DNA of 64,000 bases from an uncultured Gammaproteobacteria bacterium. GTDB taxonomy: Bacteria; Pseudomonadota; Gammaproteobacteria; CAWJOP01. Each line of letters opens with the position of its first letter. Position 1 is the stretch's first letter. Positions 1,751 to 35,410 of the stretch are shown piece by piece. The notes beneath the pieces are model-generated. The model did no database searches, was not told where the DNA came from, and was given only the letters and a program-made list of their open reading frames with translations. The stretch is from the NCBI GenBank assembly GCA_963844535.1, contig CAWJOP010000008.1, forward strand, positions 196,801-260,800, given 5' to 3'. The position numbers and the translations under genes were made by a program.

Positions 1751-4700
1751 TCAATCCACAAACACCCGTAAATTACGAAACATCCTCATCCAAGGGCTAT
1801 CTTCACCCCAACTATCTGGATGCCAACTCCACTGCACGGTACGAAAAACACGTTCAGGATGAGGCATAAGAATGGTAAAACGACCATCTTGATTAGTCAC
1901 TCCCGCAGTTCCTAATGGGCTACCATTCGGATTAGCAGGATATTTTTCAGTTTGATTGCCATAATGATCAATATAACGAAGCGCAATAGTATGAGCAGCC
2001 TTTGCCGCAGAAAATTCTGCTGCCGTTAACCATTCTGCCCGCCCTTCACCATGTGCAATCGCAACTGGTAATTGCGATCCCACCATGTCAACAAACAACA
2101 CTGCAGGAGAAGGCGTAATTTCAACCATGGAAAAACGTGCTTCAAATTGTTCGGAACGATTACGCACAAATTGTGGCCAATGATCTGCTCCAGGAATTAA
2201 AGATTTAAGCTGTGCCATCATTTGACAGCCATTACAAACTCCTAAAGCAAATGTATGCTCACGATTAAAAAAAGCTGAAAACGCGTCAAATAATTTAGCA
2301 TCGTGCAAAATAGTATTCGCCCAACCACGACCAGCACCCAAGACATCACCATAAGAAAATCCACCGACTGCAACGAAACCTAAAAACTTATCCAGCGTTA
2401 CCCGTCCATTTTGCAGATCACTCATATGTACATCAAAACAATCAAATCCTGCACGCGTAAAAGCAGCTGCCATTTCCACTTGGCCATTAACACCTTGTTC
2501 ACGCAAAATGGCTAATTGTGGCCTCGCTAAATTGATATAAGGTTTAGATATATCTTCAGTTGGATCAAATTTTAGCGACGCATATAGCCCTTTATCATCA
2601 ACATCTGAAAGTGTTTGAAATTCCTCTTCAGCACAAGCAGGATTATCTCGTAATGCTTGCATGCGAAAACTAGTTTCCGACCAAGTTTTTTGCAACTCAA
2701 CCCGTGATTGCTGCAGTAAAATTTTATCTTCCTGGATGACAACCATGTCATCTTTTGCAGTAGACGTTGCAATAGGAATAAATTTATTTTCCAAATTATA
2801 TTCTTGGATCATTGCCAGAACTTTTGTTTTATTCTCTGCACGAATTTGTAGCACTGCACCTAATTCTTCATTAAATAAAAATTTAATCGGATTTTGTGTT
2901 ACAGGAATATTAATTTTAATCCCTATATGCGAAGCAAATGCCATCTCACACAATGTCGCCCACAAACCGCCATCAGAACGATCATGATAAGCTAGAATTA
3001 AATTTTGCTGATTAAGTAATTGAATCACCGAAAAGAAATTTTGAAGCCGAAGTGGATTATCTACATCAGGACATTCCTCGCCCAGATAACCATAAACTTG
3101 CATTAACACTGAACCACCTAACCGGTTTTTTCCTTGACCTAAATCAATCAACCAAAGTTCGGTATTCTCTTCGCGCGATAATAAAGGTGTTAGCGTTTTG
3201 CGAATATCGACAACTTTAGCAAAAGCTGAAATAACTGGTGAAACCGGAGCAATTACCTTTTGCAAAACATCACCTTCATTCCACTGCATTTGCATTGATA
3301 AAGAATCTTTTCCAACTGGAATGCTAATTTTTAAGTCAGGACAAATCTCCAATCCAACTGTTTTTACCGCTTCAAATAGTGCAATTTCTTCGCCGGAAAC
3401 TTTTGCCGCTGCCATCCAGTTTGCTGATAACTTAACATCAGCAAGTTGATGAATATTCGCACAAGCAATATTGGTAATTGCTTCTCCCACTGCCATCCGT
3501 GCCGCAGCGGCGGCATTCATGATGCCTAATGGTGTTCTTTCACCAATTGCCATTGCCTCTCCACTATAGCCAGTAAAACCACTCGCAGTAACGCCCGCAT
3601 CTGCCACCGGCACTTGCCATGGGCCTACCATTGGATCGCGCGCAATTAATCCGCCAACAGTTCTATCACCAATCGTAATTAAAAAACTTTTACTAGCTAC
3701 TGCGGGAAATTTAAGTACACGACTAGCTATTTCATTAAGCTTTTCAATTGAGAATTTAGTCAACTCTTCATGTGTTTTAAGATCTGGCGCATAGGAATAA
3801 GCGGTAGAAGCTGCTTGAATTTCTAGCTTAGGCGGTTTACCAAATAAAGCCGACATGGGTAGATCAATCGGTTTGTTTTGAAAGTAACTATCTTCTATTA
3901 ATAATTTTTGCTCTAAAGTTGCCGCACCAACTACTGCAAATGGACAACGCTCTCTTTGTGCAATGGTTTCAAATAGAGTTAAGTGTTTAGGATTTACAGC
4001 TAATACATATCGCTCTTGCGCTTCATTACACCAAATTTCTAATGGCGACAAGTGCGGATCGTCACTGGGAATAGCGCGCAGTTGAATATGAGCACCACGT
4101 TCACTTTCATGAACTAATTCAGGAATCGCATTAGATAGCCCACCAGCACCTACATCATGTATCGCTACGATTGGATTTTCTTCACCTAGAGCACAACATT
4201 GATCAATCACTTCCTGACAACGCCTTTGCATTTCTGGATTGGCGCGCTGAACCGAAGCAAAATCCAAATCAACTCGCATGTTATTAGCATCTAGCGAAGA
4301 AGCCGCGCCACCCCCTAATCCAATCAATAAAGCAGGTCCTCCTAATACAATAATATAATCACCTTCAGCAATTTGATTTTTATGGGTATGCATTGCACGA
4401 ATATTGCCAATTCCACCCGCTAGCATAATCGGTTTATGATAGCCGCGAATTACTTCTGCACAGTTTGGGTTTTGATATTCAAAGGTACGAAAATAACCAC
4501 AGATATTTGGCCTGCCAAATTCATTATTAAATGAAGCGCTACCAATTGGCCCTGTTAACATAATTTCAAGACTAGCAGCAATATGCGCTGGCTTTTTTAA
4601 TGGTGTTTCCCAAGGTTGAATAAATCCTGGAATCCGCAAATGCGAAACAGAAAAACCTACCAACCCTGCTTTTGGTTTTGCTCCACGACCTGTCGCGCCT

Positions 4701-26150: not shown

Positions 26151-26271
26151 CGAAGTAGAAACTAAGCTTTTACATTTCTATTTCAAGCAATTAAAAATTT
26201 TTCCTATCTAAATATTTTTTTGACTCTTCAAAAAAATGTGATACCTTGTTCGCTTTTTTCCTAGGGCCTGT

Positions 26272-26433
26272 TTACATTTGATTTGCCATAGCGAGAAAAG
26301 CAGGGATGTAAGCTAGAAGTTTGCCAAATCTGAGGAGAATACTAAGTCGTATTTGACGAAGATTCGGCAAAATTCTAGCAAATCCTATGCTTTTCGCAGC
26401 AGGTAAATCAAATGTAAACAGGCCCTTTTTTTT
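26272..26433. repeat. ~150-bp long imperfect hairpin with perfect 23-bp terminal inverted repeats and a 3' T8 run; candidate sRNA or MITE
   Basis: GGCCTGTTTACATTTGATTTGCC at 26273 pairs with GGTAAATCAAATGTAAACAGGCC at ~26403, followed by TTTTTTTT. The interior also partly self-complements (GCGAGAAAAGCA / TGCTTTTCGC). It lies just upstream of the autotransporter gene. Confidence 0.4.
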
Positions 26434-33590: not shown

Positions 33591-33660
33591 CTAAAAACTT
33601 TGGGTATTACTAATGAATAAGCGCGCTTCGGCTAATGGGTCGCTTGAAAAATGTGGATAG

Positions 33661-34285
33661 GTGTCATTCCCGCGAAGGCGCACTAGTGTCCTGGAGAGCT
33701 GTAAATAGGCAAGCTGTTTTTCTGTAAAAAAATAAAAATATACATCCCCTCTCCCAGCCCCAAAGCATAAAAAAATCTTCGGGTTTTATCCTGGGAGAGG
33801 GCCAGGGTGAGGGAGATCAAATAAACTTTGCTATCTCTTCTCTAGTTCGGTTAAAACGGTATCTAATATTTCGTCCACATGATTGAACATTTCATTATTC
33901 CAAAAACGAACCACTTTATATCCTTGCTTTTCTAAAAATGCTGTACGTTTTTTATCATATCCCTGTGAAAACGCATGTTGACCACCGTCGAGTTCAACAA
34001 TTAATTTTTTATAATGGCAAATAAAATCAACAATGTAAGGGCTTATCATTTCTTGTCGCTTAAATTTATAGCCCTTTAATCTTCTATTTCTTAAAAAGTA
34101 CCACAATTGAGTTTCTGCTTCAGTTGCTTTTTTTCTTAGTACCTTCGCATGATTTATTGGTTGTACCATTTTGTGGTTTCCCCTCACCCTGGCCCTCTCC
34201 CAGAATAAAACCCGAAGATTTTTTTATGCTTTGGGGCTGGGAGAGGGGATGTATATTTTTATTTTTTTACAGAAAAACAGCTTGC
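33661..34285. mobile_element. family B palindromic element with ~105-bp terminal inverted repeats that carries a single DUF559 endonuclease gene
   Basis: The left arm is GCAAGCTGTTTTTCTGTAAAAAAATAAAAATATACATCCCCTCTCCCAGCCCCAAAGCATAAAAAAATCTTCGGGTTTTATCCTGGGAGAGGGCCAGGGTGAGGGAG. The right arm at 34178-34285 is its near-exact reverse complement, and each arm has its own internal hairpin. The arms are homologous to the cargo-less copy at 18080..18405. Confidence 0.65.
33831..34169 (-). CDS. DUF559 (restriction-endonuclease-like/Vsr-like fold) protein encoded inside the family B element
   Basis: 112 aa from the ATG at 34167-34169: MVQPINHAKVLRKKATEAETQLWYFLRNRRLKGYKFKRQEMISPYIVDFICHYKKLIVELDGGQHA...KQGYKVVRFWNNEM. 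This matches the conserved core of DUF559 proteins (YIVDF.C...LIVELDG..H, VLRFWN). The start abuts the right terminal repeat. Confidence 0.75.
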   Translation of the reverse strand: MVQPINHAKVLRKKATEAETQLWYFLRNRRLKGYKFKRQEMISPYIVDFICHYKKLIVELDGGQHAFSQGYDKKRTAFLEKQGYKVVRFWNNEMFNHVDEILDTVLTELEKR

Positions 34286-34441: not shown

Positions 34442-35257
34442 ATGGCAAAACCTATCTACGACACTATTGGCAAAAGTTATGATAACACGCGTCAAGCTGA
34501 CCCAGAGATTGTTAAAAAATTGCTGGAATTACTTGGCCCAATAGAAAAAGGAAAATATTTAGATCTTGGTTGCGGTTCTGGCAATTATACGGGTGCTTTA
34601 GCTGCAATGGGATTAACCATTGAAGGGGTTGATCTTTCTCTTGAAATGTTAACAAAAGCGAAAACTAAATACCCTAATGTTTTGTTCCATCAAGGTGATG
34701 CAAAGCAATTAGCTTTTCAAGATAATTCATTCAATGGTGCAGTATCTATTTTAGCTACTCATCATATTGGCGATAATTCTAAACTATTTCACCAAGCTTA
34801 TCGCATTATTAAGCAGGGACGACTGGTAATTTTTACTGCCACTCCTGAACAAATGCAGCATTATTGGCTTTGGCATTATTTTCCTAAAATGATGCAAGGT
34901 TCTGCTGCCATTATGACAAGTTTTGACAAATTAAAAGCAACATTAGAACAAGCTGGATTTAGCTCAATTGAAAAATATCCTTTCTTTATCTCCAATCAAC
35001 TACAAGATTGGTTTTTGCATTCTGGTAAATACCGTCCTGAAATATATCTTGATGAAAAAGTACGCGCAGGAATTTCATCATTTCAACTATTTGCTAACTC
35101 AGCTGAATTGACCCAGGGGCTAAAACAACTTAAAGCTGATATTGACTCAGGTGAAATTGATAAAGTCATTGCGCACTATGCAAGCGATGAAAGCGATTAT
35201 TTGTTTATTTCTGCTGAAAAAAGTGTAGTATTTATCGATGGCTTTAGTCTCATGTAA
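34442..35257 (+). CDS. class I SAM-dependent methyltransferase
   Basis: 271 aa with motif I LDLGCGSGNYTGALA and a post-I acidic residue GVDLSLEML. Its TAA stop lies within the terminus of the family C element. Confidence 0.8.
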   Translation: MAKPIYDTIGKSYDNTRQADPEIVKKLLELLGPIEKGKYLDLGCGSGNYTGALAAMGLTIEGVDLSLEMLTKAKTKYPNVLFHQGDAKQLAFQDNSFNGAVSILATHHIGDNSKLFHQAYRIIKQGRLVIFTATPEQMQHYWLWHYFPKMMQGSAAIMTSFDKLKATLEQAGFSSIEKYPFFISNQLQDWFLHSGKYRPEIYLDEKVRAGISSFQLFANSAELTQGLKQLKADIDSGEIDKVIAHYASDESDYLFISAEKSVVFIDGFSLM

Positions 35258-35410
35258 AAGCTTAGTCTCTCCCGTGAGGCCGTCATTGCGAGGCTTGAGT
35301 TTTTTGCAAGCCGAAGCAATCCAGCAAAGAAATTTAAGCATTTTTACTGGATTGCCGCGCGCATCCTGCGCTCGCAATGACGGCCTCACGGGAGAGGCTG
35401 AGCTTTTACA
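35258..35410. repeat. family C palindromic element, most complete copy (~150 bp, ~33-bp terminal inverted repeats)
   Basis: GCTTAGTCTCTCCCGTGAGGCCGTCATTGCGAGG..GCCGAAGCAATCCAGC..GCTGGATTGCCGCGCGCATCCTGCGCTCGCAATGACGGCCTCACGGGAGAGGCTGAGC. It sits between the methyltransferase stop and the EamA gene start. The internal ORFs at 35147..35389 and 35238..35459 are artefacts of the palindrome. Confidence 0.6.

Follow-up and report, generated by a model that had tools for sequence, protein, structure and literature searches.

A DUF559 nuclease gene bracketed by inverted triplex-motif repeats: a recurrent bacterial cassette and a candidate partner of TM/TMECO

The 64-kb stretch of DNA analysed here (the window) contains a DUF559 gene between two TM repeats in inverted orientation, and the same arrangement recurs across many bacterial phyla. 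We interpret the window copy as a long-loop member of a widespread cassette that would behave as a selfish element of the REP/RAYT-like or homing-like kind and would be spread by its own nuclease, and we assign this interpretation a probability of about 45%. As we envisage it, the cassette carries a TM hairpin (CCCTCNCCC/GGGNGAGGG) plus a third block on each side, with the third blocks toward the gene. To our knowledge, DUF559 is a very large family without an assigned function; YcjD of E. coli and a Neisseria protein with a crystal structure are among its members. Likewise, we know of no origin, partner protein or spread mechanism for TM repeats after more than 10 years of biophysical study. 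The occurrence of the gene between repeats in different phyla ties these two problems, the function of DUF559 and the origin of TMs, together. The DUF559-TM link appears to be new.

An inverted-repeat search of the window detected the arms of the main copy, which are 105 nt each, 99% complementary and 367 nt apart (Table 1). Only one sizeable ORF lies between them (112 aa from the ATG); its start codon is 11 nt from the right arm and its stop codon 17 nt from the left arm. A second element, the sibling (18080-18405), has arms of 73 nt that are 81% complementary. The initial annotation had described two elements with shared, hairpin-bearing inverted arms, and a single DUF559 gene ending close to both arms of one of them; this anatomy was confirmed. 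The hairpin CCCTCTCCCAG...CTGGGAGAGGG lies inside each arm of the main copy, and the window contains the 11-mer CCCTCTCCCAG 8 times where 0.27 occurrences would be expected, a count that none of 100 shuffles reached. The outer left segment (GCGCACTAGTGTCC, repeat family D8) is shared with the sibling (18074-18130 vs 33657-33713, 82% identical) and is also carried by contigs L203, L206 and L209. In the related contig L001, the REP-like outer segment is found on both sides of the cassette (outer inverted repeat of 84 nt, 93%), indicating that the window copy is truncated on the right. The full element thus probably exceeds the proposed extent of 33661-34285.

Table 1. Positions of the main copy and of the sibling in the window.
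Feature	Position	Strand	Basis or remark
Outer left segment	33661-33708	.	REP-like half palindrome GTCATTCCCGCGAAGGCG, then CACTAGTGTCC...
Left arm of the 105-nt inverted repeat	33709-33813	.	3' side of the DUF559 gene; repeat search, motif, single-strand fold
DUF559 endonuclease gene (YcjD-like, Vsr/EDxHD fold), 112 aa + stop	33831-34169	-	ORF, Pfam, PDB, fold
Right arm of the inverted repeat	34181-34285	.	5' side of the DUF559 gene; repeat search, motif, fold
Sibling, outer left segment	18080-18165	.	Repeat families D8, D6
Sibling, left TM arm	18166-18238	.	TM blocks 18168-18234; repeat search I4, I1
Sibling, spacer (remnant of the cassette interior)	18239-18331	+	DUF559 5' UTR and first codons
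Sibling, right TM arm	18332-18404	.	TM blocks 18336-18402; I4, D7 = 91% to 34177-34251

Judged from the sequence, the arm cores are the published bacterial intrastrand triplex motif TM/TMECO in a long-loop form. The arms, a GC-rich hairpin repeat, are thus not new, and with so widespread a core they are no feature private to this element. The TM consensus consists of three 9-nt blocks, CCCTCNCCC ... GGGNGAGGG N3 GGGNGAGGG (PMC4666352). This motif of Holder et al. (2015, PMC4666352) corresponds to the HPG1/HPG2 G-quadruplex-hairpin-duplex switch of Kaplan et al. (2016, PMC5100583), and in vitro it forms stable non-B structures (PMC4666352, PMC5100583). In the left arm, the motif at 33747-33813 reads CCCTCTCCC(AG), a 33-nt loop, (CT)GGGAGAGGG, CCA, GGGTGAGGG, with the third block pointing toward the gene; the right arm carries a TM in the opposite orientation (34181-34247). 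All four arms in the window have long-loop TM blocks with a 3-nt second loop, as in the three-block TM/TMECO pattern (CCCTCTCCC ... GGGAGAGGG-CCA-GGGTGAGGG), and they share with TM/TMECO the intergenic position, the occurrence as single copies or inverted doublets and the unstable loci. They differ from it in the first loop (33 nt instead of the published 3-6 nt), in a stem lengthened by AG/CT, that is by two extra base pairs, and in an inverted repeat that runs 34 nt further outward. Similar long first loops are found in the Legionella loci L132, L144 and L240. TM variants include CCCTCTCCC, CCCTCCCCC and CCTCTCC. Single-strand folding predicted Watson-Crick hairpins for the arms; triplexes and G-quadruplexes lie beyond such prediction.

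The 2015 study looked for mobility genes beside TMs and found none (PMC4666352), and the TM/TMECO papers report no associated gene or mobility function, whereas the window holds a DUF559 gene between the arms. We analysed YcjD-like DUF559 loci for flanking repeats, as the initial annotation had suggested. Inverted repeats above the 99th percentile of the control (window pairs from the same loci) flank the gene in 61 of 71 loci (86%) from many phyla. The median inverted-repeat score over the 71 loci was 25.5, compared to 102.5 for the window copy, and 10 loci had no flanking inverted repeat. When correctly oriented strict TM double blocks were counted within 150 nt of the gene ends in 73 loci, 28 loci had them on both sides, 15 only downstream and 5 only upstream. 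With a background of 0.052 per kb, the expectation was 0.0044 per search window, and the observed frequency is more than 100-fold higher. In all strict TMs at the gene ends it is the third block that adjoins the gene, and most of the other loci show relaxed variants. It should be noted that the 80 genome loci sampled were the best matches among the first 600 pattern matches and are a non-random sample. The association holds in phyla of very different GC content. It extends to viral contigs, where 12 close homologues have a TM or TM-like repeat at a gene end, 10 of them on both sides.

Individual loci show how the arrangement varies. In E. coli K-12, a degenerate TM runs across the stop codon of ycjD and TMECO #9 lies downstream. 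Degenerate TMs are also present in N. gonorrhoeae, at the locus whose translation matches the sequence of 3hrl; a long-loop TM abuts the gene in L. pneumophila, and both TMs are downstream of the gene in Enterobacter. Many DUF559 ORFs in the databases run through into ...SPxPxPLPxGEG tails. Near-identity of both arms does not hold for every locus: where strict TMs stand on either side (28 loci), mean loop identity was 0.70 within a locus and 0.52 between loci, a modest difference. The 99% arm identity of the window copy is exceptional.

Because the same arrangement recurs across so many phyla, the DUF559 family may be the missing partner of TM repeats. TMs greatly outnumber DUF559 genes, and none of 120 TM-bearing viral stretches (about 1-15 kb each) contained the gene. 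Strict inward TM pairs spaced 10-40 nt apart were present in 15 viral stretches. At spacings covered by three bins spanning 330-422 nt there were 2 stretches, one with DUF559 and one with an unrelated phage gene, and at the control spacings (268-298 and 423-453 nt) there were none, counts that are too small to weigh. The abundance of TMs without the gene speaks for a reading in which they punctuate intergenic regions in a general way, as terminators or insulators, or are fragile palindromes, and in which a horizontally moving DUF559 gene with another job, such as mismatch repair or restriction-like defence, happens to land there or nearby. The TM pair around an ordinary phage gene in L250, the insertion sequences and other cassettes inserted in TM loops and spacers (L240, L209) and the nested palindromes in L001 fit it as well. 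In L209, another cassette bounded by 89-nt inverted repeats sits inside the sibling's orthologue, so palindromes in this lineage may simply attract insertions. Still, we consider this reading rather unlikely, as the association is too strong and too stereotyped from the side of the gene, with a fixed orientation and with start and stop within tens of nucleotides, and is kept in phyla that differ widely in GC content. Moreover, no DNA cytosine methyltransferase adjoins the DUF559 gene in the window, where an ORF of 293 aa and a UbiE-like class I SAM methyltransferase lie next to it, and PADLOC gave weak partial matches at most.

The encoded protein matches Pfam DUF559 (PF04480) over residues 6-110 with E=2.7e-41 (140.3 bits vs a cut-off of 20.6), PDB 3hrl with E=1.4e-27 and NCBIfam PRK09767 with 107 bits, the latter under the equivalog cut-off of 218. 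Pfam reported DUF559 and MTES_1575 only, and neither Pfam nor the fold search revealed a DDE, HUH, serine- or tyrosine-recombinase domain in the 112 residues. The AlphaFold2 model has a pLDDT of 89. Its best characterised Foldseek match is the catalytic domain of the homing endonuclease I-Bth0305I (EDxHD, 3r3p; E=7.7e-5, TM-score 0.68/0.77), and the PHROG 'homing endonuclease' family phrog_3339 was matched with E=5e-4. E19, D48, H65 and D72 are invariant in 26 homologous sequences. These are candidate catalytic residues; the Asp-to-His spacing of 17 equals that of D196/H213 in I-Bth0305I, under a residue mapping that is inferred and not a superposition. Vsr, a repair nickase, belongs to the same fold superfamily (Foldseek E=0.013). 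The window gene differs from it in having no adjacent dcm-type methyltransferase, in a similarity far below that to 3hrl or 3r3p, and in its genomic context. The protein is under purifying selection according to the dN/dS of 0.235 between the window gene and L001. The closest paralogues or orthologues (P0001, P0121 and P0123) are 88-100% identical and lie on contigs of 220-322 kb. Close homologues are mostly chromosomal, occur in low copy number and are rare on plasmids and phages. We know of no strand-transfer chemistry for DUF559, a bare hydrolase with the Vsr fold.

The arms also overlap likely expression signals. On the mRNA strand, the third block of the right arm reads GGGTGAGGGG and ends 10 nt upstream of the ATG, which makes it a possible Shine-Dalgarno sequence, and the gene is followed by the downstream hairpin and then a T-rich tract. 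A promoter and terminator scan of the element gave nothing beyond chance; the sole promoter-like site on the minus strand upstream of the gene (34420-34393) is outside the arms. In addition, no Rfam family reached its gathering score anywhere in the window. As RNA, the arms are predicted to form a 105-bp duplex that encloses the ORF (z = -20.8). The protein might act on RNA: the arms would fold the transcript as paired hairpins or as one long panhandle, and the protein would use its Vsr/RAP-like domain to process its own or other TM-bearing RNAs. Fold matches to RAP-domain mitoribosomal proteins are in line with this idea, as is the description of FASTKD4 as a Vsr-like RNA-binding protein. However, with no promoter located, co-transcription of both arms is unproven, and the closest relatives of known function, by sequence and by fold, act on DNA. 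We regard an action on RNA as highly improbable.

The sibling turned out to be informative. The initial annotation had correctly given it the same arms and a short spacer, but the spacer (93 nt, with the arms about 93-100 nt apart) is not anonymous. Its first 23 nt match the DUF559 5' UTR and first codons (20/23 identical), the ATG is mutated to ATA, and about 45 nt of other sequence follow; in all, the first 23-55 nt of the gene are retained. On the evidence of this spacer, the sibling is a deletion derivative of the coding cassette that keeps the 5' end of the gene. As the gene match adjoins the left arm, the interior runs in the opposite direction to that of the main copy. This same derivative recurs elsewhere in a related metagenome (L203), where it is flipped and has a spacer that is 94% identical as reverse complement; the inner segment flips between arms. 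Seven arm-bearing contigs from one related metagenome contained no intact gene, and two of them carry gene-less pairs. Their flanks did not align with the window beyond the repeats, except for 50 nt right of the sibling. Overall, coding copies are fewer than derivatives without the gene, which occur as doublets and single arms. An orthologue of the sibling exists in L209, and its position is fixed between the two organisms, indicating that the sibling has not moved recently.

The coding cassette occupies different loci in related genomes: in L001, an intact copy lies beside a RelA/SpoT-family (PF04607) gene, unlike the neighbours in the window. No target-site duplication was recognised, as inspection of the ends of the window copies and of L208 revealed no direct repeat, with outer boundaries that vary between copies. 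An empty orthologous site was not found either; the search through the neighbouring methyltransferase led at best to a homologue of 73% identity, in L210, a locus that is neither syntenic nor TM-bearing. In E. coli, 3375 of 5426 genomes carry ycjD. In those without it (about 38%), the alternative state is the eef operon, with which ycjD alternates (PMC12817139), and not an empty doublet. Enterobacter and E. coli at hemW-yggM were considered as an occupied/empty pair and rejected, since ordinary REPs replace the DUF559 gene in E. coli and there is no TM doublet.

The initial annotation saw an autonomous element and its non-autonomous derivative, with DUF559 as the putative mobilising protein. 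Spelled out, this would be a transposon that has DUF559 as transposase and TM-containing terminal inverted repeats, and whose MITE derivatives are moved in trans by cut-and-paste or copy-out. The coding copy with its non-autonomous derivative stands as far as anatomy, the retained gene end, the L203 derivative and the other locus in L001 are concerned. The deletion derivative at at least two loci and the many gene-less copies also agree with such a transposon. Like MITEs derived from insertion sequences, the elements are small and have terminal inverted repeats, non-coding deletion derivatives and multiple copies, but the coding copy has no recognised transposase, only DUF559, and no target-site duplication was detected. 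The low copy number, the scarcity of the gene on plasmids and phages, the often non-identical arms and the lack of a recombinase domain in a 112-aa Vsr-fold hydrolase likewise argue against the transposon, which we regard as improbable. Classical cut-and-paste transposition by DUF559 alone is unlikely. The nuclease may have a role in mobility. The outcome named beforehand as speaking against a mobile element, homologues without flanking repeats together with repeat copies fixed in position, did not occur, and the check came out in favour of the initial annotation, as inverted repeats flank the great majority of homologues. Given the widespread TM core, the missing target-site duplication and empty site, the fixed sibling and the bare hydrolase, a transposon with its MITE is less likely than a REP/RAYT-like or homing-like relation.

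The chromosomal, low-copy nature of the gene and its purifying selection are also compatible with a host or domesticated structure-specific nuclease. Such an enzyme would handle hairpins, triplexes or G-quadruplexes formed by TMs, for example by relieving replication or transcription blocks; the TM pair would serve autoregulation or insulation, and the protein would take no part in the spread of the repeats. The overlap of the arms with expression signals, the stable structures formed by TMs in vitro and the kinship with the nickase Vsr agree with this role. It leaves unexplained the dispersal of deletion derivatives, the change of locus between related genomes and the constant third block facing the gene, and more than a third of E. 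coli genomes (the fraction given above) manage without ycjD. We consider it a minor possibility.

In the REP/RAYT-like or homing-like reading that we prefer, the relation of DUF559 to TMs would resemble that of RAYT to REP/REPIN repeats, or that of a free-standing homing endonuclease to its target. A DUF559 dimer may recognise the pseudo-palindromic junction of a TM doublet, or a structure that the doublet extrudes, and cut or nick it; I-Bth0305I, also a dimer, has a 14-bp pseudo-palindrome as its target (PMC3239194). Recombination with a further copy would then repair the break. This repair could copy the gene into empty doublets and homogenise the arms, and it could also yield inversions, deletions and the local instability already reported around TMs. 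As with RAYTs, the gene is mostly chromosomal and low in copy number, and the inverted repeats on its two sides are copies of a hairpin repeat that the genome carries in dispersed form, as singlets and doublets. RAYT, however, is an HUH Y1 (IS200/IS605-like) transposase, whereas the window protein is a hydrolase of the Vsr/PD-(D/E)XK type, and TMs differ from REPs in lacking the GTAG tag and in having a third block. For homing endonucleases, the likeness lies in the fold, with equal spacing of the candidate catalytic residues, and in a life cycle of invasion, decay and remnants that fits the sibling. Unlike them, the window protein lacks a NUMOD/HTH DNA-binding domain and is associated with neither an intron nor an intein, and its presumed target would be a repeat and not a conserved host gene.

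TM cleavage would be a candidate activity of DUF559 proteins. We tentatively extend this to the family: YcjD-like nucleases may be the enzymatic partner of TM/G-quadruplex-hairpin repeats, forming a second REP-RAYT-like system of independent evolutionary origin, whose Vsr-fold endonuclease would, in place of a transposase, create, spread or homogenise a repeat family that occurs in different bacterial phyla. If the link is functional, it would amount to a new mode of repeat-family maintenance by a nuclease, and a nuclease specific for structure or sequence might be gained from it. If true, the partnership would also explain the genomic instability at TM loci, which are unusually rearranged among E. 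coli strains (PMC4666352). In evolving L. pneumophila, three segments with a transposase and DUF559 are hotspots of intragenomic recombination (PMC12308824). Together with the alternation of ycjD and eef, these rearrangements would fit recombination stimulated by a nuclease. Units without the gene behave like repeats: in E. coli K-12 the doublets at 3.046, 3.240 and 0.624 Mb have homologous spacers of about 29 nt, and spacers of around 30 nt are frequent in TM doublets.

The element proposed in the initial annotation, two arms enclosing one 112-aa DUF559 gene, is real, as both arms and the ORF were recovered. The arms of this main copy are 99% complementary, are separated by 367 nt, and both contain the hairpin CCCTCTCCCAG...CTGGGAGAGGG. 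The hairpin 11-mer occurs eight times in the window (0.27 expected), always inside the main copy or its sibling, a second pair of the same arms. The gaps between gene and arms measure 11 nt on the right, at the ATG, and 17 nt on the left, at the stop codon. Provided that both arms are transcribed, a 105-bp RNA duplex would form around the ORF; no promoter for the gene could be placed in our scan. The product matched Pfam DUF559 (E=2.7e-41) and the Neisseria 'endonuclease-like protein' 3hrl (E=1.4e-27).

Table. Arms, genes and other repeats located in the window.
Feature	Position	Strand	Description
Main copy, left arm (I2)	33709-33813		105 nt; inverted-repeat search
Main copy, right arm (I2)	34181-34285		105 nt; inverted-repeat search
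DUF559 gene	33831-34169	minus	sole sizeable ORF between arms, 112 aa
Sibling, left arm (I4)	18166-18238		inverted-repeat search
Sibling, right arm (I4)	18332-18404		inverted-repeat search
778-aa ORF	18706-21042		Q/P/T/N-rich low complexity; directly downstream of sibling
D3, repeat within 778-aa ORF	19996-20157 and 20539-20700		162 nt, 543-nt spacing, 74% identical
I5 palindromic/REP-like family			40-nt arms, 95%
I16, I8 and TCCCGCGGCTTGTCCGCGGGATCC family			further short palindromic/REP-like repeats
I5, I16, I8 and TCCCGCGGCTTGTCCGCGGGATCC families together	35253-35410, 26263-26426, 11146-11272, 18525 / 22179 / 49031		

The sibling indeed has the same arms and shares the outer left segment (D8) with the main copy, but its spacer is not the plain non-coding DNA it had been taken for. 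Similarity between its left arm and the right arm of the main copy (I1) extends 23 nt past the arm, into the 5' UTR and first codons of the gene, indicating that the spacer is what is left of the cassette interior; relative to the outer left segment, it is inverted. Judged by its sequence, the sibling is a decayed cassette, a derivative that has been copied. When metagenome contigs were scanned with the lineage-specific arm pattern, seven contigs of similar GC content were obtained from one sample, none of which carries an intact DUF559 gene. The arm pair in L203 lacks a gene; its spacer shares 94% identity with that of the sibling and runs in the opposite orientation. L209 carries the sibling orthologue, since its right flank can be aligned for 50 nt past the element, and its spacer holds a 1.36-kb insertion. 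L208 has an arm pair with different outer sequence, and L204 to L207 have one arm each. This set indicates that the same internal-deletion derivative is present at at least two loci, that the interior flips between the arms, and that gene-less copies are more numerous than coding ones. The proposed structure of a coding element and its deletion derivative is thus supported by the sibling spacer and L203. The insertion in L209 (1996-3353, corresponding to the sibling spacer at 18239-18331 in the window) is edged by 89-nt inverted repeats (92% complementary) and contains just one ORF, of 270 aa, for which Pfam gave no significant match; it is a second one-gene cassette nested in the first.

The same cassette was found in L001, a locus whose neighbouring genes are unlike those in the window and include a RelA/SpoT-family (PF04607) gene. 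Its DUF559 gene is 79% identical to that of the window, and the arms on either side are the same (75 nt, 96% complementary). The dN/dS between the two genes is 0.235, indicating that the protein is under selection. What we observe, then, is a conserved cassette with derivatives; its interior inverts, it has changed place between genomes, and its protein is under selection. The L001 cassette lies within at least two further inverted-repeat layers (2720-3612; 84 nt, 93% complementary). Its outer REP-like segment is interrupted by a small inserted palindrome, CGCGAAGGCGGGGATCCAT...ATGGATCCCCGCCTTCGCG, which makes a nested palindromic series.

The arms represent a motif that was described before. 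Their core, CCCTCACCC-NNN-CCCTCTCCC-loop-GGGAGAGGG, is not private to it, and a 19-nt core version matches more than 120 stretches of viral contigs (a lower bound). On sequence grounds, the core is TM/TMECO, the intrastrand triplex motif (a hairpin plus a third block) that Holder et al. 2015 reported in 23 copies in E. coli K-12, where five loci are inverted doublets (PMC4666352). More than 260 genomes contain TM, which is tied to local genome instability; its loci are rearranged to an unusual degree between E. coli strains, every type A motif is paired with a type B motif, and, by the authors' own statement, mobility functions were never found beside TM (PMC4666352). In Kaplan et al. 2016 (PMC5100583), these sequences appear as a G-quadruplex-hairpin-duplex switch. 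The window arms differ from TM/TMECO in their 33-nt first loop and an extra 34 nt of inverted repeat outside; long TM loops are also present at Legionella loci. In E. coli K-12, the doublets at 3.046 and 3.240 Mb have a homologous 29-nt spacer and similar outer nucleotides, and the doublet at 0.624 Mb is a reversed version of this unit. Viral contigs frequently carry inward doublets whose spacers measure about 30 nt. Gene-less doublets behave as units, and the sibling is their local equivalent.

Our principal finding is that these repeats accompany DUF559 genes in general. Many DUF559 homologues in the databases have tails like ...SPRPSPPLGERE, which are translated TMs. A DUF559 alignment was run against one genome per species, and the best 80 loci of the first 600 pattern matches were taken; all are at least 44% identical to the query, and the result holds for the YcjD-like subfamily only. 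The loci come from Gamma-, Beta-, Alpha- and Deltaproteobacteria, Chloroflexota, Binatia, Planctomycetota, Acidobacteriota, Myxococcota, Bdellovibrionota, Patescibacteria and Gastranaerophilales. The 190 nt upstream were compared with the 190 nt downstream, using 495 window pairs from the same loci as controls. Flanking inverted repeats, which the initial annotation had suggested seeking at homologues, exceeded the control 99th percentile in 61 of the 71 loci with both flanks available and were missing at that level in 10. Strict TM double blocks in the expected orientation within 150 nt of the gene ends (chance expectation 0.0044 per window) were present on both sides in 28 of 73 loci, only downstream in 15 and only upstream in 5; relaxed variants, e.g. 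CCCCCACCC/CCCTCCCCC, occur in most other loci. There is one orientation pattern: hairpin, GGGTGAGGG, ATG ... stop, CCCTCACCC, hairpin. Arms of one locus usually resemble each other only modestly more than they resemble arms of other loci. In viral contigs, 12 close homologues have TM or TM-like repeats at the gene end (both sides in 10).

In N. gonorrhoeae, degenerate TMs were found at the locus that, on translation, gives a protein matching the 3hrl sequence. At E. coli K-12 ycjD (L122), a degenerate TM across the stop codon is followed by a duplicated 3'-end fragment and then TMECO #9. This fragment of about 55 nt lies between gene and TMECO #9 (L122:1322-1480, K-12 1351321-1351479), and the annotated ycjD ORF terminates within the degenerate TM hairpin. 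In Enterobacter, both TMs are downstream of the gene; in L. pneumophila, a long-loop TM is immediately upstream. An IS with a Tn5/IS4-type transposase sits in the loop of an upstream TM hairpin in L. pneumophila (L240:1615-3151), and next comes a unit of about 42 nt, present in three tandem copies. This arrangement upstream of the DUF559 gene probably corresponds to the 'transposase + DUF559' repeat that was described in strain Paris as a hotspot of recombination.

The reverse association, from TM to DUF559, is weak: none of the 120 TM-bearing viral stretches listed has a DUF559 gene within the DNA examined per stretch. TMs are far more numerous than the gene, as is also the case for REPs relative to RAYTs, and a TM pair in viral L250 brackets an unrelated phage gene. 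In L250 (2512-2964) and viral L067 (3583-6297), TMs lie between phage structural genes (head-tail component, tail-fibre-like ORFs), one apparently within, indicating that TMs also populate phage or prophage DNA without a DUF559 gene. The family-wide association appears undescribed so far: the literature on DUF559, ycjD and TM/TMECO, as incompletely covered here, contained no such connection, and an earlier description is possible. The association reduces two open questions to one experiment.

The AlphaFold2 model of the DUF559 protein is confident (pLDDT 89). Among solved folds, 3hrl ranks first and is followed by the homing endonuclease I-Bth0305I, whose catalytic domain matches with E=7.7e-5 and a TM-score of 0.68/0.77; the match to Vsr is weaker (E=0.013), and a PHROG family annotated as homing endonuclease matches with E=5e-4. 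E19, D48, H65 and D72 are invariant among homologues, and the Asp-to-His spacing of 17 residues is that of the EDxHD catalytic residues. I-Bth0305I acts as a dimer on a 14-bp pseudo-palindrome (PMC3239194), and the TM doublet centre is pseudo-palindromic, the kind of site this enzyme uses. Few plasmid records (37 of 72,556, many of these 37 being chromids or mislabelled chromosomes) and few phage records (3 of 50,697) contain a close homologue, a distribution more like that of RAYTs than that of IS transposases.

We propose, with a probability of roughly 0.45 for the reading as a whole, that the DUF559 nuclease would recognise the doublet junction, or a structure extruded by it, and make a break, which would be mended from another copy. 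Through such repair, empty doublets would gain a copy of the gene, the arms would become homogeneous (they are 99% identical in the window), and the deletions and inversions seen in derivatives would arise. Independent reports on TM and DUF559 loci fit this mechanism, namely the rearrangement of TM loci, the hotspots in L. pneumophila, where three transposase+DUF559 segments recombined in experimentally evolved strains (PMC12308824), and the alternation of ycjD with the eef operon between fabI and sapF in E. coli (cf. PMC12817139). Of 5426 complete E. coli genomes, 3375 carry ycjD; no TM was found at the one eef+ fabI-sapF locus examined (O157:H7 strain 1130). Alternatively, the palindromes may be mere insertion hotspots, since ISs and other inverted-repeat-bounded cassettes insert in TM loops and spacers. 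Classical transposition by a 112-aa hydrolase is quite unlikely. The target-site duplications and empty sites that the initial annotation proposed to look for did not turn up, as we found no duplication, and no occupied and empty pair at one site in the related sequences searched; the sibling position is fixed between two organisms (window and L209). A putative role of DUF559 in mobility is plausible, and it would be better described as REP/RAYT-like or homing-like than as that of a transposon giving rise to MITEs.

MITE-like palindromes abound in the genome, and the families at 26262-26426 and 35254-35409 also have copies in metagenome contig L206. Between 44504 and 61774, four direct-repeat pairs (D1, D2, D4 and D5; 130-160 nt, 87-89% identical, 2.5-15 kb apart) suggest a paralogous gene cluster or segmental duplications.
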